Part shown: piece by piece, positions 1-52,230 of the stretch | Layout: every line of letters begins with the position of its first letter | Numbering within the stretch: the first letter of the stretch is position 1 | Source of the DNA: Paracoccaceae bacterium | GTDB lineage: Bacteria > Pseudomonadota > Alphaproteobacteria > Rhodobacterales > Rhodobacteraceae | Direction: 5' to 3' | NCBI GenBank assembly: GCA_965203605.1 | Contig: OZ241902.1 | Coordinates: 2,345,425-2,409,424, forward strand | DNA length: 64,000 nucleotides | The notes under the pieces: generated by a model | The model's input: only the letters and a program-made list of their open reading frames with translations | What the model was told of the DNA's origin: nothing | The model's database searches: none | Position numbers and translations under genes: made by a program

Positions 1-2426
1 CGAATCTCCCGGACGCGCTTTGACGTTGCGGCGGTGGGATTCTTCACATTCTGCGCCTCGTCAAGAACCGCGAGTTCAAACTCATGCTCAAGGAGATATC
101 CATGATCGCGGACAATGAGAGGATAGGTCGAGATCACCAAATGGCATTCGGGGATCTTCGTGAAGAGCGACCGCCGGCCAGGGCCATGTAGTATGAGGAG
201 TTCAAGATCCGGTGTGAACCGCGCTGCCTCACGTTGCCAGTTGCCGATCAGGCTGGTCGGCACGATCAGGAGACTTGGCCTATCGGAATTCCGCTCCAGA
301 TGAAGATGGGCGAGCAGAGCCAACGCCTGGAGGGTCTTGCCCAGTCCCATATCGTCGGAGAGCGCACCACCGAAACCGCTTTCCGACAGAGCCCGGAGCC
401 AGCCAAATCCGGATTTCTGATATGGCCGTAGCTCCGCTGTCACCGAGGCCGGCGGCTCGGTCTCGGGTGCGCTTGACAGTGTCCGAAGCCGTTCGCCAAG
501 CTCGATGATCTCTCTACCACCCTTCCAGACAACTCCGCTGCCTTCAAGCGCCGTTGCCAGTTCGGCCGCCCTGGTTGCTTCCGCAACATGAAATCCAAAC
601 AATCCCTGAGCTTCGAGAAACGCCTCCACAAAGGGCGCGATACGTTCACCTTCAACCACGACATGGGAACCGTTGGGGAGTGCCATGTAGTAGCTGGAAC
701 CGGAAAGTAGGCGCTGCAGGTCATCGCCATCCCGCAATGCGCCAAACTCGTTGAGCTGCAAGCTGTCGATGACCGCGAGAATGAGCGGCACAAACTCCAC
801 TTCGTGACCATCAGCCTCAAGCTTGAGTGAGAACTTGAACCAATCCGTGCCGCCCTCCTCAGACGACTCAAGCGAAGTCGAGAAGGTAACGGGGCCATCG
901 TGCAGGTGAAACGGCCAGGTTGGGTCAATGTTCACGTTCCATCCGTTCCGGCGCAGTTCCGGCACGACTTCAGCGACGAACCTGAGTCCGTCCTCGTAAT
1001 TGCCATACTTCTGACCGGAGGTGACCGGAAAGATGATATCCGCGTCGTTCAGTTTATTTGGATTCTCCACTCTGGTCGCGTAGAATCTCGACTCCTGCCC
1101 TCCATAGTCCTTCGCTCTGGCCTGCAGTTTGCCCAATAAACTCCTTTCCGCCATCCGATCACGGTGAACAACTGAAATGACGTCATTTCCAACTGAACGA
1201 AATGAATTGGAGCCTTCATACGGCCTGATCGTGTCCTTGAAGCTTCCATAGGAAAGTGTGAGCCTTGCGCAAGGATATACTGTCGGCGAATGAGCGTCCA
1301 GCTTTTGCTTCCGTCCCACCCGGTCGTAGTAGTGGCTGTCTTTCAGCGTCTTCCCGGATAGTGTGAGCGTCGGAACCGGATCGAGGTCGCGAATCTCCTC
1401 GGTCTTCCAGACCTTTGGCAAAGGAACCGAACCATCCAGCTTCCTTAGTTGCCGGGCGACGGATGGCGTTGATTCGGGCAGCATTGTCGGAGCGGAACAG
1501 AGCCAGGCAAGCGTCCCCTGTTCCAGATCCGTCTCCGCGGGCCCGATCGAGCCCGATGCTGGATCAAAATAGATTGGCAGCGGGAACCGCAGGAACGTGA
1601 TTCCCGGGTCATCCCGATCGGTGAACCTGACGCTCTGCGAGCCATCGTCGTTCTGGAACCATGTTACTGACGCCTTTCTTCGCGAAGACCAATACAGGAC
1701 AGGCCCTTTCAGGTCGCGGCCCCGAGCACGTCCGGTCTCCACGATCTCGCGCAGGAACGCGAAGAGTTCGTCTCCCGGCGGGAACCTGCTGGAATACCCA
1801 TACCCGACCTTCCATTGGTAGTGCTGCAGCCTGGCAAGAATGCCAACATCTTCCATTGTAAGGAATGCAGGCTTCGTCCCATGCCGGTTGTAGGTATATC
1901 CGTATTCGCGCATGTTGACGCCAAGTCCTCCATTCCTTTTCACATAAGCCTTGAATGGAACGACTTCGCCACTTCCGGAAGTTCCATTGCGTATGATATA
2001 GACCAGTTGATCTGAGCCGGTCCTGGGCTCGGCGACAGCTTGCGAATGGGACCCATCTGGCGTCGCGGTCCGCTTCGGTGACCGGTCCAGCCACTCCGCT
2101 ACGCCAGGCTGGGTCGCCAAATCGCTGATCAGACCAACACTTTGCAAGCCTTCCAGAGATGCGAGTACAGCCGCCACCGCATGTTCGCAGTTATATTCGA
2201 CCGGACAGCCGCAGTTACCATCCAGATGGACAAGCTGGCCATAACGTCCGAATTCCAGTGAGATGTCCAGGAAATGGGTCTCTCCGTAGCGCCCCGAGAC
2301 CTCGGCATAGATGTTCCCGCCCGAATCGACCTCGCACCGCCAGACCTTTCCCTGACGAAAGAGTTTCTCGCCCCTCAGATATATTCCATGGCCGACTATG
2401 TTCTTGATTTCCGTGAACAGGCTCAT
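1..2426 (-). CDS. SNF2-family DNA helicase with an N-terminal SWIM zinc finger. Only the N-terminal ~808 aa lie in the window; the gene runs off the start.
   Basis: Hand translation of the minus strand (codon low coordinate = 0 mod 3) gives ...AELRPYQKSGFGWLRALSESGFGGALSDDMGLGKTLQALALLAHL... (Q-motif/motif I, GKT at 333-341). A DEAQ-type motif II follows near 100-130. A SWIM CxCxnCxH (DGNCGCPVEYNCEHAV) sits near 2190-2260, and the start MSLFTEIKNIVGH is at 2426. The frame has no stops where spot-checked (1500-1560, 350-600). The gene is absent from the ORF track because its stop lies off-window. Confidence 0.75.
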   Translation of the reverse strand, partial: MSLFTEIKNIVGHGIYLRGEKLFRQGKVWRCEVDSGGNIYAEVSGRYGETHFLDISLEFGRYGQLVHLDGNCGCPVEYNCEHAVAAVLASLEGLQSVGLISDLATQPGVAEWLDRSPKRTATPDGSHSQAVAEPRTGSDQLVYIIRNGTSGSGEVVPFKAYVKRNGGLGVNMREYGYTYNRHGTKPAFLTMEDVGILARLQHYQWKVGYGYSSRFPPGDELFAFLREIVETGRARGRDLKGPVLYWSSRRKASVTWFQNDDGSQSVRFTDRDDPGITFLRFPLPIYFDPASGSIGPAETDLEQGTLAWLCSAPTMLPESTPSVARQLRKLDGSVPLPKVWKTEEIRDLDPVPTLTLSGKTLKDSHYYDRVGRKQKLDAHSPTVYPCARLTLSYGSFKDTIRPYEGSNSFRSVGNDVISVVHRDRMAERSLLGKLQARAKDYGGQESRFYATRVENPNKLNDADIIFPVTSGQKYGNYEDGLRFVAEVVPELRRNGWNVNIDPTWPFHLHDGPVTFSTSLESSEEGGTDWFKFSLKLEADGHEVEFVPLILAVIDSLQLNEFGALRDGDDLQRLLSGSSYYMALPNGSHVVVEGERIAPFVEAFLEAQGLFGFHVAEATRAAELATALEGSGVVWKGGREIIELGERLRTLSSAPETEPPASVTAELRPYQKSGFGWLRALSESGFGGALSDDMGLGKTLQALALLAHLHLERNSDRPSLLIVPTSLIGNWQREAARFTPDLELLILHGPGRRSLFTKIPECHLVISTYPLIVRDHGYLLEHEFELAVLDEAQNVKNPTAATSKRVREI

Positions 2427-3279
2427 CCCCGCATACACTCCTCTGGTCGGCGCGCCGGATCGAATCGGCATTCGTGATGCCGCATAGGTTGGATGCGCAC
2501 GAGGTTCCCATGCGCCCTTCTCACATGGGTTCTCGTTGGGTTGCCGAGGCCAGTGCCGAAGATTTCCGCCTCTTCGGCCCGCAGGGGCATCGATTAGCAC
2601 CGTGGATTGAACTTCCTCAAGGGAAAACCACCGATTCTGTCGTCATCAGCACAATAATCTGTGGAAAACTGTGAGCATCCCACCACCTATGGACTGATTC
2701 CCGTTCAGTCCACCTTTCGCCGTCATCGTCGATTCCGCCCATGCGCCACGACCGTAACACCGTTGACCCGGAGGTCAGCCGGACAACGGCGAGGCGCAGG
2801 TTCCGGGTTACAGTCAGGGAAGGGAGGACGGCTGGACGGAAGCACCAACACCAACCTGCATGAAAGACGAAGATGGGAAACACGCCAGTCGGCAGTTCAT
2901 GCAGAACTCCGCATAATGATGTGGATGACTTCCCTTATGGACGCGGCGGCAGGTGCACAAAGCGGACATCAGGACGGTCAGCAGGCGGTCCAGCGCGAGG
3001 TGCGACGGACTCCCTAAATCCGCTGCAACCGTCATTGACAGGCGGCGGAGCGGCGCGGAGCCGTCGGAACCCGCAAACGTGCGTGGAGATCATATCGGCA
3101 GTCCATAATCCCGGAGATGCTTCTGGAACCCGGGATCCGGGCGCTACCCGCTATCGCCGGGACCAAGTCTTCCCCAACTCGGTGTCGCCTCGGTGCGTGA
3201 GCGATAGGACTGGAAGCGGGGAACGCAGGCGGCGACCCTTGAACGTGGGAATATGTTGCCTTGGATCGGCTGAATCCGG

Positions 3280-3942
3280 TCATGGAGCCCAAGGCGACCG
3301 CTGCGTACGCGACCGCAACGCAGGCCGTCTGGAGGAGACGGCGTCATATGCAAGACGAATGGAGGGCAGCACCTCTCGGGCAGCTGTGGCGACCTCGCCG
3401 AAACCGACGGGCTCCTGTCCCGCGTCCGCCGGGAAACGGTCCACCGTCCGCAGACCGGTTCGGCGCAGTTCGGCAAACGCCGACCTGGCCACCTCGGTCA
3501 GGGCAGGCGTCAGGGCGGCATGGTCGAATTCAACAAGCAACACTGGAACCAGTATGGAAAGTCGGCGTCCTGCACGGGTAACGTCCCCGGCACGAACCCG
3601 AGCACCGCTGCACATGGTCGGATGATCCCGGCGTGTATCGCCGTTGATTCCCCGCATCATCTCCGTCAGACCTTCCCATTCCCGCTCCACGTCGTGGGCT
3701 TCCAGCGCATCCGCGAGTTCATTGAGGTCATTGCTGCGGGTGCTGACACCAAAACGTCGACGGACCGCCATTCTGCCGAAGCGGGCCGCTGCATCAGCCG
3801 AGTCCTCCGCGAGCGCCTGACCGAACCAGATCATCTCAATCTCGTCCGTCTTTGGACCGGCCACCACAGCGGCCGCACGGCCCAGGTCATTGACAATTCT
3901 CAGGATGTCATCCGCTTCTCTTGCCAGTTCTTCAGGTTGCAC
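3280..3942 (-). CDS. Hypothetical protein (~220 aa), unknown function, inside the methylase/helicase island.
   Basis: It is the C-terminal two-thirds of ORF 3280..4155(-). A GTG at 3942 is preceded by GAGGGG with 6-nt spacing. The Ala/Arg-rich product is VQPEELAREADDILRIVNDLGRAAAVVAGPKTDEIEMIW... The upstream part of the listed ORF looks like spurious extension. Confidence 0.3.
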   Translation of the reverse strand: MQPEELAREADDILRIVNDLGRAAAVVAGPKTDEIEMIWFGQALAEDSADAAARFGRMAVRRRFGVSTRSNDLNELADALEAHDVEREWEGLTEMMRGINGDTRRDHPTMCSGARVRAGDVTRAGRRLSILVPVLLVEFDHAALTPALTEVARSAFAELRRTGLRTVDRFPADAGQEPVGFGEVATAAREVLPSIRLAYDAVSSRRPALRSRTQRSPWAP

Positions 3943-4256
3943 AACTAACCCCTCGATTCCAGTGGCTCCATGTCTGGCAGGTGCCCGATGGCGATGCGTT
4001 CTTCCCACTGCCCTTCGGACGGCATGGCCAGAATGTTTCAACTCCACCGCGTGATGATGGAGCGAATCTGGTGGATCTACACATCCGGCTTCCCAAGTGA
4101 CCGCCGACAGATTCCAGCCGCTGTCGGGGTGGACGATGGGCCAGACCGTCCACAAAACTGGGGAACTGTCCAGACGTCCTCAGGTTGGCGCAGCACCTCC
4201 TGCACGGCGTCAGTGATTTTTGGATGTGAGTTTGAAGCTCTTTCATAATGACCAGA

Positions 4257-4424
4257 TTACGGAAATTCGATGGTGTTGCCACTGTCGCCATGGGATGCTT
4301 TCCACCGCGTGCGCGCCTCCAATGGCGTTTGCGCCAACTCGAATTCCGGTGCCAGACGATCGTAGCCTTCCCTATGGTCACCGTCCAAACTCCACCAGTC
4401 GTGTAGTTCGTCCAGCGTGCTCAT
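4257..4424 (-). CDS. Small ORF (55 aa) with a near-perfect Shine-Dalgarno.
   Basis: GGAGGtactggaATG at 4438-4422 gives MSTLDELHDWWSLDGDHREGYDRLAPEFELAQTPLEARTRWKASHGDSGNTIEFP. The ATGA overlaps the stop of a short upstream frame. No homology recognised. Confidence 0.3.
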   Translation of the reverse strand: MSTLDELHDWWSLDGDHREGYDRLAPEFELAQTPLEARTRWKASHGDSGNTIEFP

Positions 4425-4937
4425 TCCAGTACCTCCCCTGCGCCACGGAGCGCCACATCGACCTCCCTGCGCCGCGTGCGCCCCGCTTTCTTCATGATGT
4501 CCGTACCACCACCGATCTGCCCGCCGCAACAGCATGGAGCGCACGCGATGCCCTCCCGCCCGTTCCGCCGGATTTCGCACCAGGTGCCAGTCAGGTGCCT
4601 GGTATGCGGCGCACCCACTCGCTCAAGCCCGCCCGTGGAAATCAGCTGACCTATTCTCTATAATCTCGTCCTCATATCGGCGGGCAGCGCGTCTCGCTCC
4701 CGGTTTAGAGCTTCATCCAGAGTTCTGCTCTGCCGTATGACAGAAGAGTATGGCATTCGTGCTTGACGTTGGAGCCCAACTTTCACCCGGAGGTGCAAAG
4801 ACGGCCGTTTCGCAGCGAGGGTACCAGCGAAGTGGAGAAAATGGCCCGAAGGCGGATTCTCAACTTCCGGGCACCACACCGCCAAAATGCCGGGATGGAC
4901 GCGCCGGACTTCAATGTCAACGTCGCCGAAACATCCT

Positions 4938-5363
4938 TCAGGTACCGGGATCCAGCGCCGCGATTATTCGCTCTGCCTGTTCCTTCAGCACAGGAGTTTC
5001 CACCATGACTCCGGGCGGACGCAGATTGATGCCCTCATGCCTCGGTAGAATGTGGAAATGCAGATGAAACACTTCCTGCCCACCGGCGGTCTCACTGAAC
5101 TGCTGCAGCGTGATTCCATCTGCACTGAACGCCTTCATCGCTGCTCGGGACAGCTTCTGTACAGTACCCATACAGGCTGCCAGTTGATCTGGCGAAGCAT
5201 CGAGAATGTTCCTTGCTGACGTCTTTGGAATTACAAGATGGTGCCCGTCAGCCCTGGGCATTATATCCATGAACGCAAAGGTCTCATCGTCTTCATATAG
5301 CTCAATTGACGGAATCTCTCCGCGAAGGATCTTGGCGAATATGTTGTTTTGATCGTAGTCCAT
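4938..5363 (-). CDS. HIT-family (histidine triad) nucleotide hydrolase.
   Basis: 141 aa with the HxHxHxx motif (VFHLHFHILPR) and an ATG start at 5363. Confidence 0.85.
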   Translation of the reverse strand: MDYDQNNIFAKILRGEIPSIELYEDDETFAFMDIMPRADGHHLVIPKTSARNILDASPDQLAACMGTVQKLSRAAMKAFSADGITLQQFSETAGGQEVFHLHFHILPRHEGINLRPPGVMVETPVLKEQAERIIAALDPGT

Positions 5364-5987
5364 TGGATACCTTTCGAGTGCGAGATCCGATTTCGTCGCG
5401 AGTTAGCACGATCCAGACCTCCAGGGTAAGTGGCTTTGGTTCCTCTCTGTCCATCAGCTGCTTTTTTCGCATACCGTTCTTCGCGATCCATCGGAATTTT
5501 CCCGCCCGAACGGTGCACTAACCAGCGTCCGGTAGTGTCATCAACCAATCAAGAATGGACCGAATCAGGCTCGCAAACGGAGAATCCGCATGGACAGGAC
5601 GCGATGCGAACATATGCCGACCGCGTTCAGACTTCCCCGGAAGAAGGCCAAGGCCCGACTCCGGTTCGATCACTCGCCTGTCGATCATCCTTGGCGATGC
5701 AACGCCTCGTCGAGGAAGTGCGTCGGCTGTTTCAGGAATATCTGGGAGGTTCATCACTCACGCGGATCTGCACCGCTCTCTGGATATGTGCCGCTGGAAA
5801 GCAGAGGGCATGGTGAATGTCCCGGCGGCTACCCAACGCCATACGCTGAAGCAGCCAGACCCAATGGTCAGGAAACCTCCGTGGTAGCGTCATCATCGGC
5901 GGGGTCAGAGACTGGCGCGTCCAAATCGGTGGACGGTACAGTTGGCTGGCAGATGCGTCGTGAAAACGGTATGCGAAGGGTAGCTTG

Positions 5988-7106
5988 ATGGATATCCACC
6001 AACATGACTCTCAAGGTGTTCGGGAAATGGAGACAACGACTTTGGAGAGATGCCTGTCTGAGCCCCGGATTCGCGGAGTTGATGTCTTTTGCGGAGTAGG
6101 TGGGCTCACGAGGGGTCTGGAGGATGCAGGTATTGGCATGGATCTGGGTATCGACATCGATCCGGCCTGCGAGTATCCGTACAGCGAGAACAACCGCGCA
6201 AACTTCCTGAGAAAGTCTGTCAAGGATGTCACGGCCCGCGAATTGCGAGCCGCTTTCGGCAACGCTCAACTCAGATTGCTGGCGGGATGCGCACCATGCC
6301 AACCGTTCTCGACATACAGCCAGGGACGATCCAGTCAAACCGATGAACGCTGGAACCTGCTTTCAGAGTTCCAGCGCCTCGTCATGGAAGCACGTCCGCA
6401 TCTCGTGACAATGGAGAACGTTCCCCGCCTAGGCCGCGAACCGCTGTTCGCAGAATTCGTAGCCGCTCTCGAGGAAGACGGTTTCCATGTCTTTCACGAG
6501 GTGGTCAACTGCGCCGACTACGGCGTTCCGCAGCAGCGCAAGCGGCTGGTACTCCTGGCGTCCGTTCTTGGTCCAATCCGGCTCATGCGTCCGACGACCC
6601 CTGGTAGCCGTCGAATTACGGTTGGGCAGGCCATCGGCGCTCTTCCGGCCATCACGGCAGGCGAGATCCACAAATGCGACCCTCTCCATCAAGCGTGTAA
6701 GCTGTCGCCGCTGAACCTTGAACGCATCCGTGCGTCTCGCCCTGGCGGGACATGGCGTGACTGGGAACGGCGTCTTCAGGCCACCTGCCATCGGAAGAAG
6801 GCAGGTAAGTCGTACCCAAGTGTCTACGGCCGGATGGTTTGGACCGAACCGTCCCCCACTGTTACGACACAGTTCTATGGCTTCGGGAACGGGCGATTTG
6901 GACACCCTGAACAGGACCGCGCGATTTCATTGCGCGAGGGAGCGATTCTGCAGAGCTTTCCGGAGAACTACCGGTTCGTTCCCAAGGGCGCTCCCATCAT
7001 CAGGAAAACGGTCGGGCGTCTCATCGGAAACGCCGTGCCCGTCAGGCTGGGGACTGAAATAGGCAACAGCATGGTTCAGCACGTTGCGGAGACCGTCAAT
7101 GACTGA
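5988..7106 (+). CDS. DNA (cytosine-5)-methyltransferase, Dcm-like.
   Basis: C5-MTase motifs: I DVFCGVGGL, IV GCAPCQPFS, VI ENVPRL, VIII QQRKRLVL, X GNAVPV. The ORF track starts at TTG 5985; the ATG is at 5988. Confidence 0.9.
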   Translation: MDIHQHDSQGVREMETTTLERCLSEPRIRGVDVFCGVGGLTRGLEDAGIGMDLGIDIDPACEYPYSENNRANFLRKSVKDVTARELRAAFGNAQLRLLAGCAPCQPFSTYSQGRSSQTDERWNLLSEFQRLVMEARPHLVTMENVPRLGREPLFAEFVAALEEDGFHVFHEVVNCADYGVPQQRKRLVLLASVLGPIRLMRPTTPGSRRITVGQAIGALPAITAGEIHKCDPLHQACKLSPLNLERIRASRPGGTWRDWERRLQATCHRKKAGKSYPSVYGRMVWTEPSPTVTTQFYGFGNGRFGHPEQDRAISLREGAILQSFPENYRFVPKGAPIIRKTVGRLIGNAVPVRLGTEIGNSMVQHVAETVND

Positions 7107-9102
7107 ATTGTCACGAGCTGTGGCGCCGAACAGTCCGGACGGGACCAACTCTGGCACTCCGTTCAGGATGACCGTCGACCTGAACGTGCTCAACCATCTG
7201 GGAATCAAGCTCTACAGTTCGATTCCCGCCGTTCTCTCGGAGGCGGTGGCGAACGCCTGGGATGCCGATGCGGAATTGGTTGAGATCGAAATCGCAGGCA
7301 ACCGCATTGTCATCACCGATGACGGCCACGGAATGACCACCTCTGACATCAACTCGAAATTCCTAAAGGTCGGTTATCAGCGCCGCAGGGAGGGGCTGGC
7401 GACAACACTTCGAGGCCGCGCAGTTCTCGGAAGAAAGGGCATCGGCAAGCTATCCCTCTTTTCCATCGCCAATACGATTGAAGTGCACAGTTGCAAAGAC
7501 GGCCAACGATCCGGACTGCTACTAAGCCTACCGGGAATTCAGGAGAGCATAGATCGTCAGTCAGGGGAGTACTTTCCCGACGAGGTGCCATCGGAACGGA
7601 TTGATATCAAGGAAGGGACCCGACTCGAGATTCGCGACCTGCGGAAACGCACCACCCTGACCCCGCCTACTCTTCGGCGGCGCTTAGCAAGGCGTTTTTC
7701 TTCAATTGGGAACGACATGGACGGGATGCGCTTCGACGTCAAGATCAATGGCGAAGCGGTAACAGCCGAGGATCGGGAATTCTACCGCAAGGTAGAGTAC
7801 CTCTGGACCTTTGGCGAGCGCGGCAAGGAGGTCGCGTCGCTGGCGAAAGCAAATAAGGGGTGCTTCGCACGAAAGACCGAAGGCAACTTTTCCGGATGGA
7901 TAGGCACTGTCGCGTCCGCCGGAGATCTTGTGAGCGAGGATGGCGACAATCTAAATGACATCCAGATCATGGTGCGCGGCAAGGTGGCTCAGGAACGAAC
8001 TCTGGAAAAGTTCGGTGAAGACGGACTCTACGCCCGCTACGTCGTTGGTGAGATTCATGCGGACTGGCTTGACGACGACAACATGGAGGATATCGCAACC
8101 ACCAGCCGCCAGTCCCTCATCGAAGACGATCCTCGTGTCGAGAAACTCTGGAGAGGCATCCGCCAAGAGTTAAAGCATATACAGAACCAATGGACTGATC
8201 TGAGGACAAGGAAGGGAGTACAGGCAGCTCTCAGGGTACCGGAGGTCAAGGACTGGTTCGAAACCCTGGGAAGCGACCAGAAGTCGAAAGCCCGACAACT
8301 GTTCGGGAAAATCAACAGCCTGAAGCTTGACTTCTCGGACAAGAAGCCGCTGTTCAAGTACGGCGTACTGGCGTTCGAAAGGCTCAAGCTCCGCGATAGT
8401 CTCAGCAACCTCGACCAGCTGCAGGACGGAGATGTCGCAGGCTATCTGAAGGCATATGCCTACCATGACGACCTCGAAGCACAGCTCTACTATGAGATTT
8501 CGAAAGGTCGACTCGAGGTCATCGAGAGCTTTCAGGATCTCGTTGACCACAACAGCCTGGAGAGAGTCCTGCAGCAGTTCCTCTTCGAGCACCTGTGGCT
8601 ACTTGATCCATCCTGGGATCGCGCCACATCAGAGCCAGTGATGGAAAGAGAAGTGCGAAATGCTGTATTGGACAACGACGAGTTTGATGGAGAGTACCTG
8701 GAGGAGGTCGGGCGCATCGACATCCAATACCGGAAATCCGGTGGCAAGCACGTCATAATCGAGCTGAAGCGCGCAGGAGTCACAACGGACACATTCAAAC
8801 TTCTCAATCAGGTTCAGAAGTACCAACGTAAGCTGAAGCAAATATTGGTCCATAACGGACGATCAAACGAGGACTATGAGATCATCTGCATTGTCGGAAA
8901 GGACTTGGCGGATTGGGGGGAGCCGTCCGGTCGTGAGCAATCCAAGAAAATCCTCGACGCGGTAGGCGCACGAGTCGTTACATATGACGAAATGACGAGC
9001 AACGCTCGCCGTGCCTATAGAGAATATCTTGATGCGACGACCAGTGCCGGAAAGATACATAGGGTGATCAAGGCAATTGAAGCTGGTTTGGTGGAAGTAT
9101 GA
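7099..9102 (+). CDS. GHKL-superfamily ATPase (HATPase_c_3 / MORC-MutL-like) with a C-terminal PD-(D/E)xK-like module. Probable restriction/defence partner of the adjacent methylase.
   Basis: N-terminal Bergerat-fold boxes: N-box EAVANAWDADA, G1 DDGHGM, G2 GRKGIGKLSLFS. The C-terminal ...LWLLDPSWDRA...GRIDIQYRKSGGKHVIIELKRAG resembles a D...ExK nuclease core. ATG 7099 overlaps the dcm stop (ATGACTGA). Local GC is visibly lower than the flanks. Confidence 0.8.
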   Translation: MTELSRAVAPNSPDGTNSGTPFRMTVDLNVLNHLGIKLYSSIPAVLSEAVANAWDADAELVEIEIAGNRIVITDDGHGMTTSDINSKFLKVGYQRRREGLATTLRGRAVLGRKGIGKLSLFSIANTIEVHSCKDGQRSGLLLSLPGIQESIDRQSGEYFPDEVPSERIDIKEGTRLEIRDLRKRTTLTPPTLRRRLARRFSSIGNDMDGMRFDVKINGEAVTAEDREFYRKVEYLWTFGERGKEVASLAKANKGCFARKTEGNFSGWIGTVASAGDLVSEDGDNLNDIQIMVRGKVAQERTLEKFGEDGLYARYVVGEIHADWLDDDNMEDIATTSRQSLIEDDPRVEKLWRGIRQELKHIQNQWTDLRTRKGVQAALRVPEVKDWFETLGSDQKSKARQLFGKINSLKLDFSDKKPLFKYGVLAFERLKLRDSLSNLDQLQDGDVAGYLKAYAYHDDLEAQLYYEISKGRLEVIESFQDLVDHNSLERVLQQFLFEHLWLLDPSWDRATSEPVMEREVRNAVLDNDEFDGEYLEEVGRIDIQYRKSGGKHVIIELKRAGVTTDTFKLLNQVQKYQRKLKQILVHNGRSNEDYEIICIVGKDLADWGEPSGREQSKKILDAVGARVVTYDEMTSNARRAYREYLDATTSAGKIHRVIKAIEAGLVEV

Positions 9103-9626
9103 AGAGGTTACGTCATGCATTCTCGGATCCGCGTCATCACAATACAAATGGCCAAACAGAGCGGCCACAGCGGTATGATTGCCTCATATCGCGGAGTGCT
9201 GCCAGAGACCGCCCCTGCGACCGGAACCTGTCGCGACCCTAGCGGCATCTTGACCTGCGGCTCTCGACTGTTTCGGCGATTGCGAAGGAATGACTCAAGA
9301 GCGACTGAACGTCCTGGGCCAGAGACGTGTCTTCTAGGCTGGGCCAGTCACATCGCAGCACTACGGGCATAACATTTCTGCAATAATGGCCTCTCTGGAT
9401 GCGGCTCCAACCTGTAGCGTGCGATCACCTCGTCGGCATCCATCTGCAAATGCACCTCGTTACTGATGCCCGTCCAGCTGCGCCATCCGGTTGACATCGT
9501 CCATGGCTACCGCGACGGATGCCTGCAATCGGTGAAATCGACATGTCCGAGGTCACCTGACGGTTACGGCAGCGAATGGTCTTCAACGTAAGGGTCACAG
9601 CGGAATGGACCGTCGGCGCAAACGGC

Positions 9627-11183
9627 TCAGAAGTCCGTCGGAGCGCCACCTTCGCGCTTGCGCCTGGCGACGAAGTCGACGAGTTCTTCGTGGATCCCTG
9701 GATCCATGGGCGGCGGCTCAAAACCACGCAGTATGTCTTTGGCCAGTCGGTGCGCCCTTTCCGCGGTCCAGACCTCTCCCGCGAGTGACCAAGCCTCGTA
9801 ATTCCTCCAGTCCGAAACGAACGGCTGGTAGAAGGCCGTCTCATACCGCTCCTGGGTATGCTGGACCCCGAAGAAATGTCCGGAGCTTCCAACCTCCCTT
9901 ATCGCCTCAAGCGCGAGGTTGTCCCGGCCAGTATTCCAGATCTCAGGCTCGAAATACCTCTGGATCATCTGCAGGAGCTCGCAGTCCATGACAAACTTCT
10001 CTGGGCTGGCGATCAGCCCGCCCTCCAGCCATCCGGCGGCGTGGTAAACCATGTTCGTGCCTGACTGCACCGCCGACCAGAGGGAATTCGATGTCTCCCA
10101 CATGGATTGACCATCAGGTATGTTTGCCGTGCAGACGCCGCTCGCTCGCATCGGCAGCCCATACAGGCGTGCCATCTGACCTGTCATCTGGGTCGCGCGC
10201 ATATATTCCGGTGTGCCGAACGCAGGGGCTCCCGACTTCATGTCCACGTTGGAAGTGAACGTGCCGAAGACGCAGGCGCATCCCGGCGCGACATACTGAA
10301 ACAAAGCGATCGCACACAGCGCCTCGGCGATCGACTGCGCCACCGCACCCGCCATCGTAACCGGCGACATGGCACCTGCCAGCGTGAAGGGCGAGACCAC
10401 AACCGCCTGCCCGCGTCGAACGCACCGCAGGCATCCGTCAATCATTGGATGATCATGTTTCAGGGGTGAAGTGGAATTGATGTTGGTATACATCCGCGGC
10501 TTGGCCTGGAACTCATCCTCCGCAAGGCCACAGGCGATCCTGACCATTTCCATGACATCCTCGACTCGCTCCCTACCCAGGCTATAGGCATGCATCACCT
10601 TGTCAGTGAGCGTCAGCTTGTCGAACACGACGTCGAGGTGGCGGACCGCAGCATGGACATCCACGGGCTCGACCGGGTAGCCACCGGCAAAGTGAATGCA
10701 GTTGAAATACTGGGTCAGCCTGAGCAGGTCGGCACATTGCTCGCGGGTGCCAGGTGTCTTTCCGCCATCGAGCGACCAATGGTTCGGTGGCGAACTCACA
10801 TTGCCGAACACAATGCTGTCGCCCCCGATCTTCAAAGCCCTTCCAGGGTTGCGCGGGACGAGCATGAACTCACTTGGCGCACGGTCCAGCATTTCCATGA
10901 CGAACTCCCGGCCCATCCGCACGTTCTGCCCGCTGACGGCACAGCCGGCCTTCCGGAAAATTCCCAGACTCTCCTCGTTGAGGAATTCCACTCCGATTTC
11001 CTCCAGAATCCGCATGGCGCAGTTATGAACCGCCTGTATGCCCTCTTCGTCCAGTGGTTCAGTCGGCCGATCAGGGTTCCGGGGAATCCTCCACGACGTC
11101 TGCGAAATCGCCTCTGGGCTGTTCCTGCGTGGATTGCCGGCCCGTCCACCAGATCGTTTCCTCCGCGGTTTCGCTTCGGTCAT
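9627..11183 (-). CDS. MttB-superfamily corrinoid-dependent methyltransferase (non-pyrrolysine glycine-betaine/quaternary-amine type).
   Basis: 518 aa from MTEAKPRRKRSGG... with strong family-level similarity over its full length, e.g. FTLAGAMSPVTMAGAVAQ, YHAAGWLEGGL. There is no in-frame amber codon. The ORF-track N-terminal extension (to 11534) is discarded. Confidence 0.85.
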   Translation of the reverse strand: MTEAKPRRKRSGGRAGNPRRNSPEAISQTSWRIPRNPDRPTEPLDEEGIQAVHNCAMRILEEIGVEFLNEESLGIFRKAGCAVSGQNVRMGREFVMEMLDRAPSEFMLVPRNPGRALKIGGDSIVFGNVSSPPNHWSLDGGKTPGTREQCADLLRLTQYFNCIHFAGGYPVEPVDVHAAVRHLDVVFDKLTLTDKVMHAYSLGRERVEDVMEMVRIACGLAEDEFQAKPRMYTNINSTSPLKHDHPMIDGCLRCVRRGQAVVVSPFTLAGAMSPVTMAGAVAQSIAEALCAIALFQYVAPGCACVFGTFTSNVDMKSGAPAFGTPEYMRATQMTGQMARLYGLPMRASGVCTANIPDGQSMWETSNSLWSAVQSGTNMVYHAAGWLEGGLIASPEKFVMDCELLQMIQRYFEPEIWNTGRDNLALEAIREVGSSGHFFGVQHTQERYETAFYQPFVSDWRNYEAWSLAGEVWTAERAHRLAKDILRGFEPPPMDPGIHEELVDFVARRKREGGAPTDF

Positions 11184-36602: not shown

Positions 36603-36676
36603 GGTGAGTTGGCGGAGAGGCTACGCAGCGGACTGCAAATCCGTGTACACCGGTTCGAATCCGGTACTCACCTCCA
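36603..36676 (+). tRNA. tRNA-Cys (GCA).
   Basis: 74 nt. Acceptor stem GGTGAGT/ACTCACC, anticodon loop CTGCAAA, T-arm GGTTCGAATCC, 3' CCA encoded. It aligns position-by-position with E. coli tRNA-Cys. Confidence 0.9.
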
Positions 36677-42707: not shown

Positions 42708-44018
42708 ATGCACTACATGGCAAACTACGACCTAATGGAGACGGTCCGCAACACCAACCAATGGCTTGGCGCCACAGCGCTTGCGATCGGATCATACCCA
42801 GTGACCGGTCTGTTGCCCCTTCCGTTCTTTCCGTTGCTCTCGGCTTGGGGTGAGGTGACGGAGCGCGCATTCGCCCGCATTGTCGCCAAGCCTGACTGGG
42901 GCATTCGGACATTCACCTGCGAGGATGGGCGCGACCGCTTGGTTGATATCGTGACCGTGGTCGAAAGACCGTTCGGAGACCTCATCCACTTTCGTGTCCA
43001 GGGGCGCCCACCCCAGCCTCGCCGGGTGCTTCTGGTCGCGCCAATGTCGGGTCACCACTCAACGCTGCTGCGATCGACTGTGAAGAGCCTGATCACGAAC
43101 TGTGAAGTCTATGTGACGGATTGGCACAACGCCCGCGACATTCCGGTTTCGATGGGGAAGTTCGATATTGAGGACCATACCCGTTATCTCGCTGACTTCA
43201 TGCGGGACCTAGGCCCGGACATCCATGTCATCGCCATCTGCCAACCGGCTCCTTTGGCGTTGGCAGCCACGGCGCTTCTTGCCGAACAGGATCCGAAAGC
43301 ACAGCCACGTACATTGACACTGATTGGCGGACCGGTCGATCCAGACGCCGCGCCAACGGAAGTCACCGACTTCGGACGCCGCCTGACGATGGGTCAACTT
43401 GAGGGCCTTGCCATCCAAAGGGTTGGATTCAAATACGCTGGAGCGGGTCGTTTGGTCTATCCGGGTATGCTGCAATTGGCGGGCTTCATTTCGATGAACC
43501 CGGAAAGCCATTCCAAGGCCTTCACCGAACAGATAATCCGCGTCGCCAAGGGTGAGGCTGGTGACCATGATCGGCATAATCGGTTCTACGACGAGTATCT
43601 CGCCGTGATGGACATGACGGCGGAATTCTACCTTTCAACCGTCAAACGAATTTTCAAGTCGCGCGAAATCGCCCGCAACAGATTCTTCGTCGGCGATAGC
43701 CATGTCGACATCGGGAAGATAACGGACGTCGCTGTAAAGGTGGTTGAAGGCGAGGAGGATGACATCAGTGCTCCCGGTCAATGTCTCGCGGCGCTTGATC
43801 TGCTGACAGGCCTCCCTTCGGAAATGAAGGCCAGTCACCTTGAACCCGGTGCGGGTCATTACGGGATATTTGCAGGCCGGTCCTGGCGCGAAAACATCCG
43901 CCCGCTCGTGCTAGACTTCATTGAGAGCAATTCCGGTCGGGCGCGGAGACCGCCCTCAGGTCCGAAGACCTCTCCAGACCAGACACTCATGAAACCGACG
44001 GCGGGCGCAGCTCAGTGA
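42708..44018 (+). CDS. phaZ: Intracellular poly(3-hydroxybutyrate) depolymerase.
   Basis: 436 aa from MHYMANYDLMETVRNTNQW... (PHB_depo_C family signature region). It is divergent from phaC with a 100-bp intergenic region. Confidence 0.9.
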   Translation: MHYMANYDLMETVRNTNQWLGATALAIGSYPVTGLLPLPFFPLLSAWGEVTERAFARIVAKPDWGIRTFTCEDGRDRLVDIVTVVERPFGDLIHFRVQGRPPQPRRVLLVAPMSGHHSTLLRSTVKSLITNCEVYVTDWHNARDIPVSMGKFDIEDHTRYLADFMRDLGPDIHVIAICQPAPLALAATALLAEQDPKAQPRTLTLIGGPVDPDAAPTEVTDFGRRLTMGQLEGLAIQRVGFKYAGAGRLVYPGMLQLAGFISMNPESHSKAFTEQIIRVAKGEAGDHDRHNRFYDEYLAVMDMTAEFYLSTVKRIFKSREIARNRFFVGDSHVDIGKITDVAVKVVEGEEDDISAPGQCLAALDLLTGLPSEMKASHLEPGAGHYGIFAGRSWRENIRPLVLDFIESNSGRARRPPSGPKTSPDQTLMKPTAGAAQ

Positions 44019-44817
44019 GCGTCGCGTCGACGCGACAGCTCCCAAATCCACCAGGCACCCCCCACAGTTCCAGTCACCCCAATGTGGACGGATAGAGGTC
44101 GCTTTCCTGTCCCTCCGGCCGCCTAGCCCAGGCGAAGGAAGCCTGGATCTGGCCGAATCCCGGCAAAGCGGCATCGCCCCTTGGGCACAAACCAGTTCCT
44201 GCGAGGCAACCGTCGGCACAAGTTGATTCCTTGATCTGAAGGTCACGGTTCCATCCGCTCCGGCGGATTCTCTTGATGCCCCACTCCCATTCCGAACGGC
44301 AACGCCGTCCCCGGAACGGCTATTGTCCCTTGCCGAGGCAGCCTGTCCGCGCCGCGCCCGCCCTCGCCAGGGCGGGTCGCGTCCGTCCGGCAACGGCTTT
44401 CGGATAGACTTACTGCGCCGCGCACGATCTTTTCGATCCTCAAACCCATGACATGGGGTGACCCGATAGGGCAGGAGAACTCTCTTTGTCTGACGCACAT
44501 TCTTTGTTTGCAATCGGCGTCCGTATTGGTCAAGAAGGTCAAGGAAGATAGACGAAGGGTTTCCACCTCGCGCGAGCGCGACGGTCGTACTTCTGTGCAA
44601 CGCCAGAGCGCTGAAGGAGCCTCTCGAAGCGGCCACCGGAGAGCGCCTCAGCGACTGTGGAGAAAAGGGCATCGCAGGTGATGTCGTTTAGGTCAAACGC
44701 AACAGGATCGTGGATGCGGTGCGCTGGCGCATGGACGCCGGAGTGGCCGCAGGCGGGACTCCCGTTCGCCCCGCCGGCCGTCGGCGGCATGGCCCGGCGC
44801 CGCGCAGGGAGGCATAG

Positions 44818-45504
44818 ATGACCCGGCAGCGACTTCCGATCGGGATCCAGGACTTCCGGACCATCCGGAGCGGGGGCTTCCACTATGTCGACAAGACCCC
44901 GCTGGTCCGGCGGCTGGTGGACGAGGGGCGCCACTACTTCCTGTCCCGCCCGCGCCGCTTCGGCAAGAGCCTGCTGCTCGACACGCCGGGATCGCTGTTC
45001 GCCTGCGACGAGGCCCTGTTCCGGGGGCTGGACATCCACCCGCACTGGGACTGGTCCGCGCCGCACCCGGTGGTGCGGCTGAGCTTCGGCGGGAAGTACA
45101 GCGAGCCGGGGGAGATCGCAGGGGACATCATCGAGCAGCTGGAGGGCATCGAGAGCGAGCACGATCCTGCGCCTGCCCGGACATCCGATACCGGCCCGAG
45201 GCGTCTCCGCAACCTTCTCCGTCGTCTTCACGGCGCCACCGGCCGGCCGGTGGCGGTGCTGGTGGACGAGTACGACAAGCCGATCCTGGACGTGCTGCAT
45301 GACCCGGACCTGGCGAGGGCCAACCGGGACCACCTGCGGGGCTTCTACGGCATCGTCAAGGACAGCGCCCGGCATGTCCGCTTCACCTTCGTCACCGGGG
45401 TGAGCATGTTCTCGAAGGCCAGCCTGTTCCCGGGCCTCAACAATCTGGAGGACATCAGCCTCGACCCGCGCTTCGCCGCGGTCTGCGGCTACCGGGAGGA
45501 GGAC
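44818..45504 (+). pseudogene. N-terminal fragment of a PF09820 AAA-ATPase-like / PDDEXK_9 protein, truncated by IS insertion.
   Basis: MTRQRLPIGIQDFRTIRSGGFHYVDKTPLVRRLVDEGRHYFLSRPRRFGKSLLLDT matches the PF09820 N-terminal consensus. The reading frame ends in a TGA supplied by the IS end (45511-45513). Confidence 0.75.
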
Positions 45505-45524
45505 CTCTCTTGAGTAAAACATCC

Positions 45525-46916
45525 CTAACCCACTGATTCCAGGGTATTTCCGGATTCCGGGCTTTCGGGGATCCTGACGAGCTGGTAGCCGAGCTGTCTG
45601 GCCCGTCGGCCGAGGTTCGTGACGGTTCGGTTGACGCGGCGGCGCTCGTAGGCATCCATCCCGCGCTCCACGTATTCCTCCCCGTTCGTGACGAGTGTGT
45701 ACACGAGGCAGGCAAGTTCGCGGGCGGTCGCGGTGACCGCCACCGGCGCGTCCTTCCGGGCGAGGCGGGCGCGGTGCCGGGCGCCGATGAACGTCTGGCT
45801 CCTGCGGGCGGACATGGCGGCCATGCGCAGGGCCTGCGCGACCCTGTTGACGACCTTGGGCGGGCGCCCCGGCAGGGACTTTCCGCCGCTGATCCGGGTT
45901 CCCGGCGCCAGCCCCAGCCAGGAGCTGAAGTGCTGCGCCGAGGGGAAGGCCGACATGTCCGGGCCGACCTCCGCCGCGATGGTGAGGGCCGTGCCCACCC
46001 CGATGGTGGGGATGGCGGTGAGGTCGACGCCCATCATCCCGCGCAGCGCCTGCGCCATCGCCCTGTCCCCCGCTTTCCGTCCGCCAGCGGCGCCCCGACG
46101 GGCCTTCGGTGCGGCGCGAACGGGGTCCGGGGCGTCCCCGGCCGCATCCGCCGGACCGCCATCCGACCCTCCGTCACCCCCCTGCGGCGTCAGGCCGTCG
46201 ATCGCCTCCGCGATCCGCGCCCCGCAGGTCCCGATCTGCTGCGTGAGGAAATCGAAGCGCTCCAGCGCCTGCTCCAGCGCGAACAGGTGCTCGTCGCGCC
46301 AGGTGCCCTGAAGCGCGTCGGCGATCCTCTCCCCGCCCGCCCTTATCCGCCGGTTGCGGAGCGCCGCCAGCCGCGCCGGGCTGCGCTCGCCGTCGACGAT
46401 CGCCCGCAGGATCCTCAGGCCGGTGGCGCCGGTGATGTCGCTGATCACCGAGTCGAGGCGCACGTTCATCTCCGTCAGCGCCTTCTGCATGTGCAGGACA
46501 CAGCGCGAGCGGTCCTCGGTCAGCCGCTTCGCCTGACGCACGTACGAACGCAGCGGGCAGACGTCATCGCCGGGACGGAAGGCCCCCCGCAGGAGCCCGT
46601 ACGACAGGAGCTGCCGGATCCACTGGCAGTCCAGGACGTCGCTCTTGCGCCCCGAGATCTGCTTCGTCATCCGTGGCGGCACCAGCATCACCTCGAAGCC
46701 GGCCCGGTCCAGGACCTCGAAGACCGGGATCCAGTACACCGAGGTCGACTCCATCGCCACCTTCCCGACCCCGCAGGACGACAGCCAATCCGCCATCTCC
46801 TCAAGGTCCGGCGTGAAGGCCCCGAACGACCGCACCGGCTCCGCGAACCGGTCCGCATCGACCGCGACATAGTGTGTGTCCTTGCCGATATCGATCCCGG
46901 CGCAGTCCCGGGTCAC
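45525..46916 (-). CDS. IS110-family (DEDD) transposase/recombinase, element A copy 1.
   Basis: ...TRDCAGIDIGKDTHYVAVD...ESTSVYW... RuvC-like DEDD domain plus a C-terminal Transposase_20-type domain. Probable GTG start at 46916. The track's TTG 46973 start lies inside element B's left end. Confidence 0.85.
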   Translation of the reverse strand: MTRDCAGIDIGKDTHYVAVDADRFAEPVRSFGAFTPDLEEMADWLSSCGVGKVAMESTSVYWIPVFEVLDRAGFEVMLVPPRMTKQISGRKSDVLDCQWIRQLLSYGLLRGAFRPGDDVCPLRSYVRQAKRLTEDRSRCVLHMQKALTEMNVRLDSVISDITGATGLRILRAIVDGERSPARLAALRNRRIRAGGERIADALQGTWRDEHLFALEQALERFDFLTQQIGTCGARIAEAIDGLTPQGGDGGSDGGPADAAGDAPDPVRAAPKARRGAAGGRKAGDRAMAQALRGMMGVDLTAIPTIGVGTALTIAAEVGPDMSAFPSAQHFSSWLGLAPGTRISGGKSLPGRPPKVVNRVAQALRMAAMSARRSQTFIGARHRARLARKDAPVAVTATARELACLVYTLVTNGEEYVERGMDAYERRRVNRTVTNLGRRARQLGYQLVRIPESPESGNTLESVG

Positions 46917-47049
46917 GATCTCCAGATGCCATGAGACACGCCGCCGTTTGCCTTCGCGGGTGATTCGGTGCAAGGGAATGACGATGTTTCAACATGTTGT
47001 GGCGGGGGGCCATTTGACGGCAACCCCCGCCCTGTGAAAGGAGAATGAA

Positions 47050-48417
47050 ATGACTGATTCGAAAACCCCCTTCGAGGGCGACGTTACCACGGTCTACGCG
47101 GCGTTGGAAGTGAGCGGCACCAGCTGGATACTGGCGGTGGGCGATCCGTCCGACACGTCGAAAGCCGGCGTGCACAGACTGGCGCCGCATGACGTTGACG
47201 GCCTGCTGGGCAGGCTCGGGCGGGCGCGGGAGCGCGCTGTCGGGGCCGCCGGCGATGTCCGGGTGAAGCTGGTGTACGAGGCTGGCTACGAGGGCTTCTG
47301 GCTGGCCCGCCGGCTGGAGGGGGAGGACCCCGGGGTTGTGGTCTGCGACCCCGCGAGCCTGGAGGTGGTGCGCAGGAAGAAAAAGGTGAAGACGGACCGG
47401 ATCGACGCCCGCCGGATGGTCCGGGCGCTCAGGGCGTGGGACGGCGGCGACCGGGACGCGATGTCGCGGGTGCGGGTCCCGACGGTCGCGGAGGAGGACA
47501 GGAAGCGGCTTCTGCGCCGGCGGGAGCGTCTGGTGCAGGAGCGCCGCCGGCTCGCGAACGCGGTGGGTGGGCTTCTGAGGCTGCACGGCATATGCGGTGC
47601 GCGTCCGGAGAGGCCGGGGTTCCGGGAGCGGCTCGTCGGGATGGAGACCGGCTACGGGACGCCGCTGCCGCCGGAGCTGCTCGCGGAGATTGGGGGCATG
47701 CTGGATCGGCTGGAGCTGGTGGCCGCGGAGCTGAAGGTGGTCGAGGCGAGGAAGGCGGAGATTCTGGAGGCGTCGGGCCGGGCCCTCGACAGCCTTCACG
47801 CGGATGCCGACCGGCCTCCCGCCGCCCCGGCTCCCCGGAAGGAGGCGCCCGATCCGGAAAGAGCCGCCCGGAAGGAGGGGTCGCGCGGAGCGGATCCGGC
47901 CGGTGCGCCCGCTGGCAGGCCGCGGGCGGCCCCGGCGAACACCCACCACGCGGCGGCGCTGGTCCGGCTTCGCGGGATCGGCCCGAACGACGCGCTGATG
48001 CTGGGCGGCGAGCTCTTCTACCGGGAGTTCCGCAACCGCCGGCAGCTGGCCAGCCTCGCGGGGCTGGCGCCGGTGCCCTTCGCGAGCGGGGGCGTCGACC
48101 ACGACCAGGGGATCAGCAAGTCCGGCAGCGCCATGCTGCGCAGGCACCTCGTGCAGATGGCCTGGCGCTGGCTGCAACACCAGCCGGAGAGTGCGCTGTC
48201 CGCGTGGTTCCGGAGCTACGTGAGCGCCCGCGACGGGCGGTCGCGCAGGCGGGGGATCGTGGCGCTGGCGCGTAAGCTGCTGGTCGCGCTGTGGCGGTTC
48301 GCCACCACCGGGCTGGTGCCGGAGGGCGCCGTCCTGTCCGGGGCACGGGGGTGGGAGGGCAACGGAACACCCGGGCGGCCCGACGGGGCCTCCGGGGAAC
48401 CCGGGCAGGGCGTGTGA
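47050..48417 (+). CDS. IS110-family (IS1111-group-like) transposase/recombinase, element B copy 1 (stop-loss variant, 455 aa).
   Basis: MTDSKTPFEGDVTTVYAALEVSGTSWILAVGD...VKLVYEAGYEGFW... The copy-1 tail reads GARGWEGNGTPG... because the TAG seen in copies 2 and 3 is TGG here. Confidence 0.85.
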   Translation: MTDSKTPFEGDVTTVYAALEVSGTSWILAVGDPSDTSKAGVHRLAPHDVDGLLGRLGRARERAVGAAGDVRVKLVYEAGYEGFWLARRLEGEDPGVVVCDPASLEVVRRKKKVKTDRIDARRMVRALRAWDGGDRDAMSRVRVPTVAEEDRKRLLRRRERLVQERRRLANAVGGLLRLHGICGARPERPGFRERLVGMETGYGTPLPPELLAEIGGMLDRLELVAAELKVVEARKAEILEASGRALDSLHADADRPPAAPAPRKEAPDPERAARKEGSRGADPAGAPAGRPRAAPANTHHAAALVRLRGIGPNDALMLGGELFYREFRNRRQLASLAGLAPVPFASGGVDHDQGISKSGSAMLRRHLVQMAWRWLQHQPESALSAWFRSYVSARDGRSRRRGIVALARKLLVALWRFATTGLVPEGAVLSGARGWEGNGTPGRPDGASGEPGQGV

Positions 48418-48552
48418 CCGCAGGAGGGCCTGGTTCGCCGCAGGACGCGGCACCGTCCATTCCAGATGGGTCCCGCCCCCCGGAACGTCGCACCGGCCCG
48501 AATCGGGCATGATGGTCACGGGGCCGGCACCGGCCAACCGAACCGGATAAGA

Positions 48553-49180: not shown

Positions 49181-49201
49181 TCTCTCTTGAGTAAAACATC
49201 C

Positions 49202-50593: not shown

Positions 50594-50726
50594 GATCTCC
50601 AGATGCCATGAGACACGCCGCCGTTTGCCTTCGCGGGTGATTCGGTGCAAGGGAATGACGATGTTTCAACATGTTGTGGCGGGGGGCCATTTGACGGCAA
50701 CCCCCGCCCTGTGAAAGGAGAATGAA

Positions 50727-52031: not shown

Positions 52032-52230
52032 GAGGGCAACGGAACACCCGGGCGGCCCGACGGGGCCTCCGGGGAACCCGGGCAGGGCGTGTGACCGCAG
52101 GAGGGCCTGGTTCGCCGCAGGACGCGGCACCGTCCATTCCAGATGGGTCCCGCCCCCCGGAACGTCGCACCGGCCCGAATCGGGCATGATGGTCACGGGG
52201 CCGGCACCGGCCAACCGAACCGGATAAGAG

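Follow-up and report, generated by a model that had tools for sequence, protein, structure and literature searches.

Do the genes at the left end of this stretch of DNA form one defence system, and which of them belong to it? The stretch, called the window below, comprises 64,000 nucleotides of the metagenome-assembled genome of a Paracoccaceae bacterium (contig OZ241902.1, positions 2,345,425–2,409,424). A preliminary description of its first 9.1 kb had proposed a low-GC defence island in which a SNF2 helicase, a C5 cytosine methyltransferase and a MORC-like GHKL ATPase-nuclease work together. We conclude that positions 6027–9102 very probably hold an intact two-gene Type II restriction-modification (R-M) system of the BbrUII/HgiDII family. 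The unit is a two-gene module composed of the methylase gene (M) and the gene of the ATPase-nuclease (R); the SNF2 gene, a HIT-family gene and a 220-residue open reading frame (ORF) are only its neighbours. The proposal of R-M-type defence involving a GHKL ATPase fused to a restriction-fold nuclease holds, whereas the role given to the helicase and the novelty ascribed to the system do not.

The M gene spans positions 6027–7106 of the forward strand and encodes a 359-residue C5 cytosine DNA methyltransferase. Its start was taken as the ATG at 6027, and the mechanically called ORF opens at a TTG at 5985. The protein matches PF00145 (E = 8.4e-48), TIGR00675 dcm, and the PADLOC models MTase_II (1.3e-84) and DrmMII (7.7e-87). 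The catalytic motifs are complete, with FCGVGG at residue 21, PCQPFS at 90, ENV at 130, QQRKR at 169, and GNAVP at 334, in agreement with the initial identification of the gene as dcm-like. The R gene extends on the same strand from the ATG at 7099 to position 9102, encodes 667 residues, and overlaps the methylase stop codon by 8 nt. Alternative starts are the TTG at 7084 (the mechanical ORF of 672 residues) and the ATG at 7168 (644 residues), which is conserved in the family. The true start may be Met 7168, in which case M and R would not overlap.

The R protein matches the NCBIfam equivalog NF050001.1, “BbrUII/HgiDII family restriction enzyme”, with a score of 773.8 bits (cutoff 550) and an E-value of 1.5e-232, covering positions 1–659 of the 659-position profile. 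It also matches two PADLOC models of Type II restriction endonucleases, the better of which is REase_II PDLC03419 (2e-90, full length). All the other NCBIfam matches of R, to HSP90, sacsin, MutL, and NucS, are weak and below the cutoffs. The family is large, with more than 6000 homologous proteins at E ≤ 1e-5 and at least 584 loci among species-representative genomes, which belong to many bacterial phyla and to archaea. The closest homologues are found in Rhodobacteraceae, Rhodospirillaceae, and Rhizobiaceae.

The domains of R were delimited using a full-length AlphaFold2 model (mean predicted local distance difference test score, pLDDT, of 76), which was searched with Foldseek, and an alignment of 40 homologues that are 46–83% identical. 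Residue numbers refer to the 667-residue protein. The N-terminal GHKL (Bergerat-fold) ATPase domain (7171–7698, residues ~25–200) is modelled with pLDDT values of 85–95 and contains the HATPase_c_3 match (PF13589, 2e-18), which spans residues 48–155 of the 672-residue ORF, corresponding to approximately residues 43–150. Its four motifs are invariant in the 40 homologues: E48, N52, and D57 of motif I, D74-x-G76-x-G78 of motif II, the segment G111-RKGIGKLSLFS-122 of motif III, and G173-T174 of motif IV. The domain is followed by a β-rich middle domain of the transducer or S5-like type (7699–8127, residues ~201–343), delimited by the AlphaFold2 model and fold matches, and by a long helical linker or arm (8131–8541, residues ~345–481; pLDDT 52–75), in which DSSP assigns helices 345–378, 392–407, 412–440, and 446–481. 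The GHKL and middle domains of the model match TRAP1/Hsp90 (1e-13), MORC2 (9cdh, 3e-11), and the N-terminal domain of MutL (9n2k, 5e-11) over 370–480 aligned columns. The GHKL ATPase recognised in the preliminary description is thus borne out by profile, motifs, and fold.

The C-terminal domain (8560–9048, residues ~488–650), an α/β domain in the model, was assigned to the PD-(D/E)xK nucleases from its conserved motifs and a fold search. E488, D541 (codon 8719–8721), E555-x-K557 (8761–8769), and Q571-xxx-Y575 are invariant in the 40 homologues. The GRIDIQ...VIIELK core noted earlier corresponds to D541 and E555-x-K557 and is followed by a RecB-like QxxxY helix, and the model of the domain resembles NucS, Shedu, FokI, and other PD-(D/E)xK nucleases, so that the reading of this core as nuclease-like is confirmed. 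Both a GHKL fold and a nuclease fold were matched; the preliminary description had named the absence of either as grounds for abandoning its proposal. The C-terminus had no Pfam match at E ≤ 0.01, a search of PDB sequences with R returned only a weak match to MutL (E = 0.046), and the PADLOC SduA (DUF4263) model gave a marginal match (E = 0.0083). The label “MORC/MutL-like” is apt for the GHKL and middle domains at the superfamily level, but no MORC-specific model matched R, for which Pfam gave only the generic HATPase_c_3 and HATPase_c, and Hsp90/TRAP1 scored at least as well.

The genes that accompany R were sought in 80 homologous R loci from different species, each with up to 10 kb of flanking sequence on either side, using the proteins of the window as queries. 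A C5 methylase homologue was present in 70 loci, and at four of the other ten the upstream sequence was too short to judge. In approximately 62 of the 80 loci the methylase lies directly upstream of R in the same orientation, with −39 to +175 bp between the two genes, and matches the methylase of the window over nearly its full length at 45–61% identity. This linkage, together with the NF050001 match, upholds the suggestion of an R-M-type pair made up of the methylase and the GHKL ATPase-nuclease. In the methylases of these 62 loci, the target-recognition region (residues 186–290) has a mean identity of 53%, as compared with 48% in motifs I–VIII. Since the target-recognition region is as conserved as the catalytic motifs, the comparison argues for one recognition sequence shared by the family. 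Homologues of the SNF2 protein, the HIT protein, the 220-residue ORF, and MttB were found within 10 kb of none of the 80 R genes. Candidatus Poribacteria genomes are over-represented among the 80 loci.

The M-R pair is mobile accessory DNA and not a housekeeping pair. Three of the loci (L002–L004) carry it next to integrases of the phage type and to GmrSD and HEPN genes; on a Rhizobium plasmid it is accompanied by a Vsr gene; and it is also found in a P2-like phage, in which the depositors annotated “ParaMORC3” next to “Dcm protein”. Conservation of the pair in core-genome synteny, which had been considered as a possible refutation of a defence role, was not observed: the contexts are unrelated, and R is missing in close relatives. 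No convincing direct or inverted repeats flank the pair, no Rfam family was detected in 1–12 kb, and no tRNA gene lies nearer to the pair than that at 36.6 kb. The latter, tRNA-Cys (GCA) at 36603–36676 of the forward strand, is the only tRNA gene of the window and is far from the M-R pair. The P2-like phage mentioned above, Escherichia phage PhiR44_1 (PV340563.1), carries at 4992–8040 a full-length R homologue with 37% identity, convergent with a Dcm methylase gene; this pair sits in a variable region flanked by the portal gene gpQ and the replication gene gpA.

Close relatives record the loss of R. The methylase has a cluster mate of at least 90% identity on three contigs of related genomes (L089–L091), which are syntenic with the window at 85–93% nucleotide identity and have in common with it the gene order SGL/FCD genes, SNF2, HIT, the methylase, MttB, a HAD hydrolase, and MarR. 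Positions 7093–9520 of the window (2428 bp) correspond to only 28 bp in these relatives. Of the methylase gene, the replaced stretch takes in only the final 14 nt; it also covers all of R and the 418 bp that follow R. In the methylase of the relatives, the last four residues of the window protein are exchanged for a new 22-residue tail, and there is no partner nuclease. Because the replaced stretch begins, on its left, within the final codons of M, and M and R are mobile as a pair at other loci, it is far more likely that R was lost from an ancestral M-R pair than that R was gained alone. R-M systems usually decay in this way, losing R and leaving an orphan methylase, and the three relatives represent such a decay.

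The comparison also assigns the DNA downstream of R. The non-coding gap between the end of R and the stop codon of the MttB gene measures 524 bp (9103–9626), as had been estimated (approximately 500 bp). Most of it, the 418-bp stretch at 9103–9520, belongs with the R gene, since both are gone together in the relatives. This stretch contained no recognisable gene, Rfam family, tRNA, or repeat, and had no blastn or tblastx match to any of the fetched loci. A terminator-like hairpin is present on the minus strand at 9168–9148.

The most serious rival explanation is that R is a stand-alone nuclease of the Shedu type (paraMORC3 or type 1D), triggered by a signal of infection and not by unmethylated sites, and that the methylase is independent of it, for example an orphan or regulatory enzyme. 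VcSduA of the Vibrio cholerae WASA lineage is a GHKL-Shedu of type 1D that has the same layout as R, with N-terminal GHKL motifs I–IV and a C-terminal PD-(D/E)xK domain, and defends alone; its E27A (ATPase) and K557A (nuclease) mutants lose anti-phage defence (PMC12137116). Furthermore, some loci of the R family lack an adjacent C5 methylase, including several copies in Cenarchaeum, and the close relatives described above keep the methylase without R. However, VcSduA is encoded by a single gene without a methylase and is detected as DUF4263, whereas the SduA/DUF4263 signal of R is marginal, as given above. The methylase, with its conserved target-recognition region, lies directly upstream of R in approximately 62 of the 80 loci, in many phyla and often overlapping R, which indicates a cognate pair. 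The NCBIfam equivalog is named for two listed restriction enzymes, and the orphan methylases of the relatives are what the usual decay of an R-M system leaves. We therefore consider a stand-alone nuclease improbable. R differs from VcSduA in having a cognate methylase, so that it would distinguish self from non-self DNA by methylation.

At least six full-length homologues of the GHKL-nuclease are present in a single metagenome-assembled genome of Cenarchaeum sp., an archaeal symbiont of sponges (OY282369.1; L057, L064, L066, L078, L082, and L086). For four of these copies (L057, L066, L082, and L086), no C5 methylase homologue was present within 10 kb, and the only one near L078 is a distant homologue approximately 1.9 kb upstream on the other strand.

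The three-component system of the preliminary description, in which the SNF2-SWIM protein, the C5 methylase, and the GHKL-nuclease constitute one MORC/helicase-type R-M-like defence system, has lower odds still. It has a precedent in operons of MORC and paraMORC proteins with superfamily II (SF-II) helicases, including SWI2/SNF2, described by Iyer et al. in 2008 (PMC2292703). The three genes lie within 9 kb of one another, in a variable region, and the SNF2 protein matches the PADLOC models DpdE, ZorD, and DrmD, best of all DpdE PDLC02842 (1.7e-54, nearly full length). Nevertheless, 3.6 kb separate the SNF2 gene from the methylase, which is on the opposite strand; the HIT gene, the 220-residue ORF, and small ORFs lie between them, so the contiguity that had been implied is absent. 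No SNF2 homologue occurs within 10 kb of R at any of the 80 loci, the relatives L089–L091 retain SNF2 in place where R is deleted, SNF2 homologues with 51–77% identity are found in other contexts with no R-M genes near them, and none of the NCBIfam defence-helicase models comes near its cutoff, with DrmD and DpdE far below. SNF2 as a component of the M-R system was rejected on the grounds of the missing linkage and of its retention in relatives without R. The three-component model is thus largely refuted, and with it the claim that the MORC-like ATPase works with an SF-II helicase at this locus.

We also considered the systems DISARM class 2 and Dpd, since the methylase matches DrmMII (7.7e-87) and the SNF2 protein matches DpdE and DrmD. 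None of the core genes DrmA, DrmB, DrmC, and DpdA–D is among the five proteins of 1–9.1 kb that were scanned with PADLOC, and the neighbours in the loci L001 and L005 are HindIII-like R-M genes, an IS1595 element, HIT, and MttB. A DISARM or Dpd reading was rejected because no core partner genes are present and the matches reflect generic similarity of C5 methylases and SNF2 proteins.

The least probable alternative is a module for methylation-linked repair, or one that depends on modification: the pair would act on T:G mismatches from the deamination of 5-methylcytosine (m5C) or cut methylated foreign DNA. The MutL-like N-terminus of R, the Vsr genes that accompany the M-R pair in 30 of the 80 loci and on the Rhizobium plasmid, and the repair role raised for some paraMORC3 proteins by Iyer et al. 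(PMC2292703) might suggest such a module. However, the enzymes after which the family is named have restriction activity, Vsr also accompanies many ordinary R-M systems of the m5C type and is absent from the window, and a modification-dependent nuclease beside the methylase that makes its substrate would be self-toxic.

The two-gene R-M system of the BbrUII/HgiDII family agrees with what is known of its named members. With HgiDII of Herpetosiphon and BbrUII of Bifidobacterium breve UCC2003, the window shares the full-length family match and GHKL N-terminus of R, the two-gene operon in which M precedes R, and an m5C partner of the M.HgiDII type. The N-terminal GHKL domain of R.HgiDII was described in a 2008 classification of Type II enzymes, in which its C-terminal domain was “unassigned to any known fold” (PMC2441816), whereas the C-terminus of R was assigned here to PD-(D/E)xK by motifs and fold search. 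Proteins of this kind had been described as known by comparative genomics only; for the family of R this does not hold, given that it is a named restriction-enzyme family, that its GHKL domain was recognised in 2008, and that the related VcSduA was validated by mutagenesis in 2025.

The domain order of R also corresponds to that of paraMORC3, which was defined from comparative genomics by Iyer, Abhiman & Aravind in 2008 as GHKL and S5 domains followed by a C-terminal RecB-like nuclease with E-D-ExK residues, associated with cytosine methylases and Vsr (PMC2292703). R has all these elements, namely GHKL, S5-like, and restriction-endonuclease-fold domains with E-D-ExK, and in addition QxxxY. The association with cytosine methylases and Vsr, and a sporadic, laterally mobile distribution, are common to paraMORC3 and the R family. 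Many paraMORC3 members stand alone or beside helicases, whereas the subfamily of the window is tightly coupled to a C5 methylase. Gu et al. (bioRxiv 10.1101/2023.08.10.552793) count GHKL-containing proteins among the type 1D Shedu nucleases and observed that many Shedu genes sit in R-M loci. R shares the module of GHKL and middle domains with MORC ATPases and MutL, but its nuclease is of the PD-(D/E)xK type and not the metal-site endonuclease of the MutL C-terminus. “MORC-like” is therefore a resemblance at the superfamily level only, and the architecture fits paraMORC3.

Based on the domain structure of R and its pairing with M, a mechanism of restriction can be proposed. The m5C methyltransferase would protect host DNA at the recognition site, and R would cut unmethylated incoming DNA by means of its C-terminal PD-(D/E)xK domain. 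D541, E555, and K557 are the predicted catalytic residues, assigned by conservation and fold. The GHKL modules of MutL, Hsp90, MORC proteins, and topoisomerases work as clamps that dimerise when ATP binds. Similarly, the GHKL and middle domains of R probably dimerise on binding ATP, as in MutL, Hsp90, and MORC proteins, and the dimerised module would gate the nuclease or position it on DNA. The requirement for ATP and the dimerisation of R are suggested by analogy; the invariance of the ATP-binding motifs argues that ATP binding matters in the R family. The authors of the VcSduA study propose that its ATPase controls the nuclease (PMC12137116). The region between HIT and M (5364–6026) presumably holds the promoter and control region of the operon; it has 78% nucleotide identity in the relatives that retain M and contains no gene for a controller (C) protein.

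The recognition site is somewhat more likely than not to be that of the two named family members, GTCGAC. BbrUII was reportedly described as a SalI isoschizomer by O’Connell Motherway et al. in 2009. GTCGAC is the site methylated by the m5C methylase M.HgiDII, of which M.BbrUII is a homologue (PMC5867850).

Several observations weigh against the R-M reading or against the specificity attached to it. The R and M proteins of the window are tied to the HgiDII and BbrUII enzymes only by way of the NCBIfam model. The system is dispensable, as close relatives live without R. A scan of 5300–9700 found no σ70-like promoter. GTCGAC is not depleted in the window, which contains 35 sites against an expectation of 25.3 ± 5 (Markov observed/expected ratio of 1.10); however, the count is uninformative and does not bear on the specificity either way, since a host need not avoid sites that it methylates. 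M.BbrUII has also been called an N6-adenine methylase (PMC5829577), in conflict with PMC5867850; we read this label as a mix-up with BbrUIII.

For decades, enzymes of the HgiDII/BbrUII type have been catalogued simply as Type IIP “SalI isoschizomers”. We speculate, with considerable reservation, that they could instead be ATP-gated, Shedu-like clamp nucleases that bridge, in evolution and in mechanism, methylation-based R-M and the single-gene GHKL-Shedu (paraMORC3) nucleases. If so, the GHKL dimer, and not the nuclease domain, may perform the sequence recognition and licensing. The R-containing genome and its R-deleted relative would then be a natural isogenic pair for testing this idea.

As it stands, the M-R pair adds one more member to a widespread Type II R-M family that already has a name, a real but ordinary finding, and nothing in the locus would surprise a specialist. 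The value for annotation is small, since the NCBI pipeline and tools of the DefenseFinder/PADLOC type would already call a Type II R-M system. Modest value lies in the placement of the nuclease domain of the family among the PD-(D/E)xK enzymes, with an invariant D-ExK-QxxxY core and structural proximity to NucS and Shedu, and in the tie of a classical restriction-enzyme family to paraMORC3/GHKL-Shedu proteins. The relatives add a clean natural case of R-M decay, with a precise deletion of R and an orphan methylase with a changed tail.

The base composition of the locus had been taken as a sign of horizontal acquisition. The R gene has a GC content of 54.4%, as compared with 58.7 ± 1.7% for host-like 2-kb windows, and is the lowest such window (z = −2.6). 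The low GC of 7.2–9.1 kb is thus real, but “low-GC island” does not fit, as the methylase has 59.2% GC and the GC content of third codon positions is 0.65 in R, 0.656 in M, and 0.639 in SNF2. Since the third-position value of R equals those of M and SNF2, the dip is due to amino-acid composition and not to foreign codon usage, and the argument for horizontal acquisition from GC content is weak. A variable, defence-rich region is a fair description of the site.

The first 9 kb contain more than the three genes that were said to fill them. All three are present, but the HIT-family gene (4938–5363, minus strand; PF01230, 3e-25), the 220-residue ORF (3280–3942, minus strand), to which no function was assigned and which had no homologue in the 80 R loci, and the small ORFs beside these two intervene between SNF2 and the methylase. 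The MttB gene (9627–11183, minus strand) is convergent with R, with its 3′ end facing R.

The SNF2 ORF begins at position 2426 (or 2471) on the minus strand and is cut off by the left end of the window, which includes 808 of its residues. The full protein of 1131 residues, with SNF2-rel_dom and Helicase_C domains, is encoded on the ENA contig copy of the locus (L005, 12938–16333). The naming of this gene as a SNF2 helicase with a SWIM zinc finger holds for the SNF2 part (PF00176, from residue 669). The putative finger corresponds to a SWIM-like CxCx7CxH motif, CGCPVEYNCEH at residues 72–82; the Pfam SWIM model gave no match at E ≤ 0.01. On a 5.7-Mb NCBI contig the SNF2 product is 869 residues long (100% identical, 74% coverage), as compared with the 1131 residues on the ENA contig, and the relative L090 has three ORFs in place of the one gene. 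Frameshifts or indel errors of long-read assemblies with low coverage may account for these differences in length and splitting. A homologue search with the full SNF2 protein returned few true full-length relatives, because eukaryotic SNF2 candidates sharing words with the query crowded the list.

A homologue of the 220-residue ORF is kept upstream of a SNF2 homologue with 77% identity (L093), and a SNF2 homologue with 51% identity (L092) adjoins an integrase and insertion sequence (IS) elements. The SNF2 gene and the 220-residue ORF may form a separate mobile module. A 76-residue ORF after SNF2 was considered as an IS-truncated copy of the 128- or 129-residue ORFs that follow SNF2 homologues; this was rejected, as there is no homology. 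Between SNF2 and HIT, a second segment of the window (3000–4454), which includes the 220-residue ORF, is replaced in the relatives by a segment (7784–8483 of L089) with a gene for a Gp49-type, toxin-like protein (PF05973) and a 56-residue ORF.

A second R-M system is located in the same genome next to the SNF2 gene, approximately 1.3–4.2 kb beyond the left end of the window (L005, 16686–19607). It comprises an IS1595-family transposase gene, an N6_N4 DNA methylase of 322 residues, and a convergent HindIII-family endonuclease gene (PF09518, 1.5e-93). The relatives carry a DruA-like gene (PF14236) at this site.

Further to the right, positions 44000–56000 of the window have a GC content of 65–74%, as compared with approximately 58.7% elsewhere. 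The region contains a near-exact tandem duplication, the copies of which (45505–~49000 and 49182–~52680) are offset by 3677 bp and share a fully identical run of 1590 bp. Each copy includes an IS110-family transposase gene (45525–46973, minus strand) and an ORF of 683 residues without a Pfam family (46801–48852, minus strand). A related ORF of 653 residues (52579–54540) and a gene for a PDDEXK_9 protein (54234–55211) follow on the forward strand. The region resembles a cluster of mobile elements of foreign composition.

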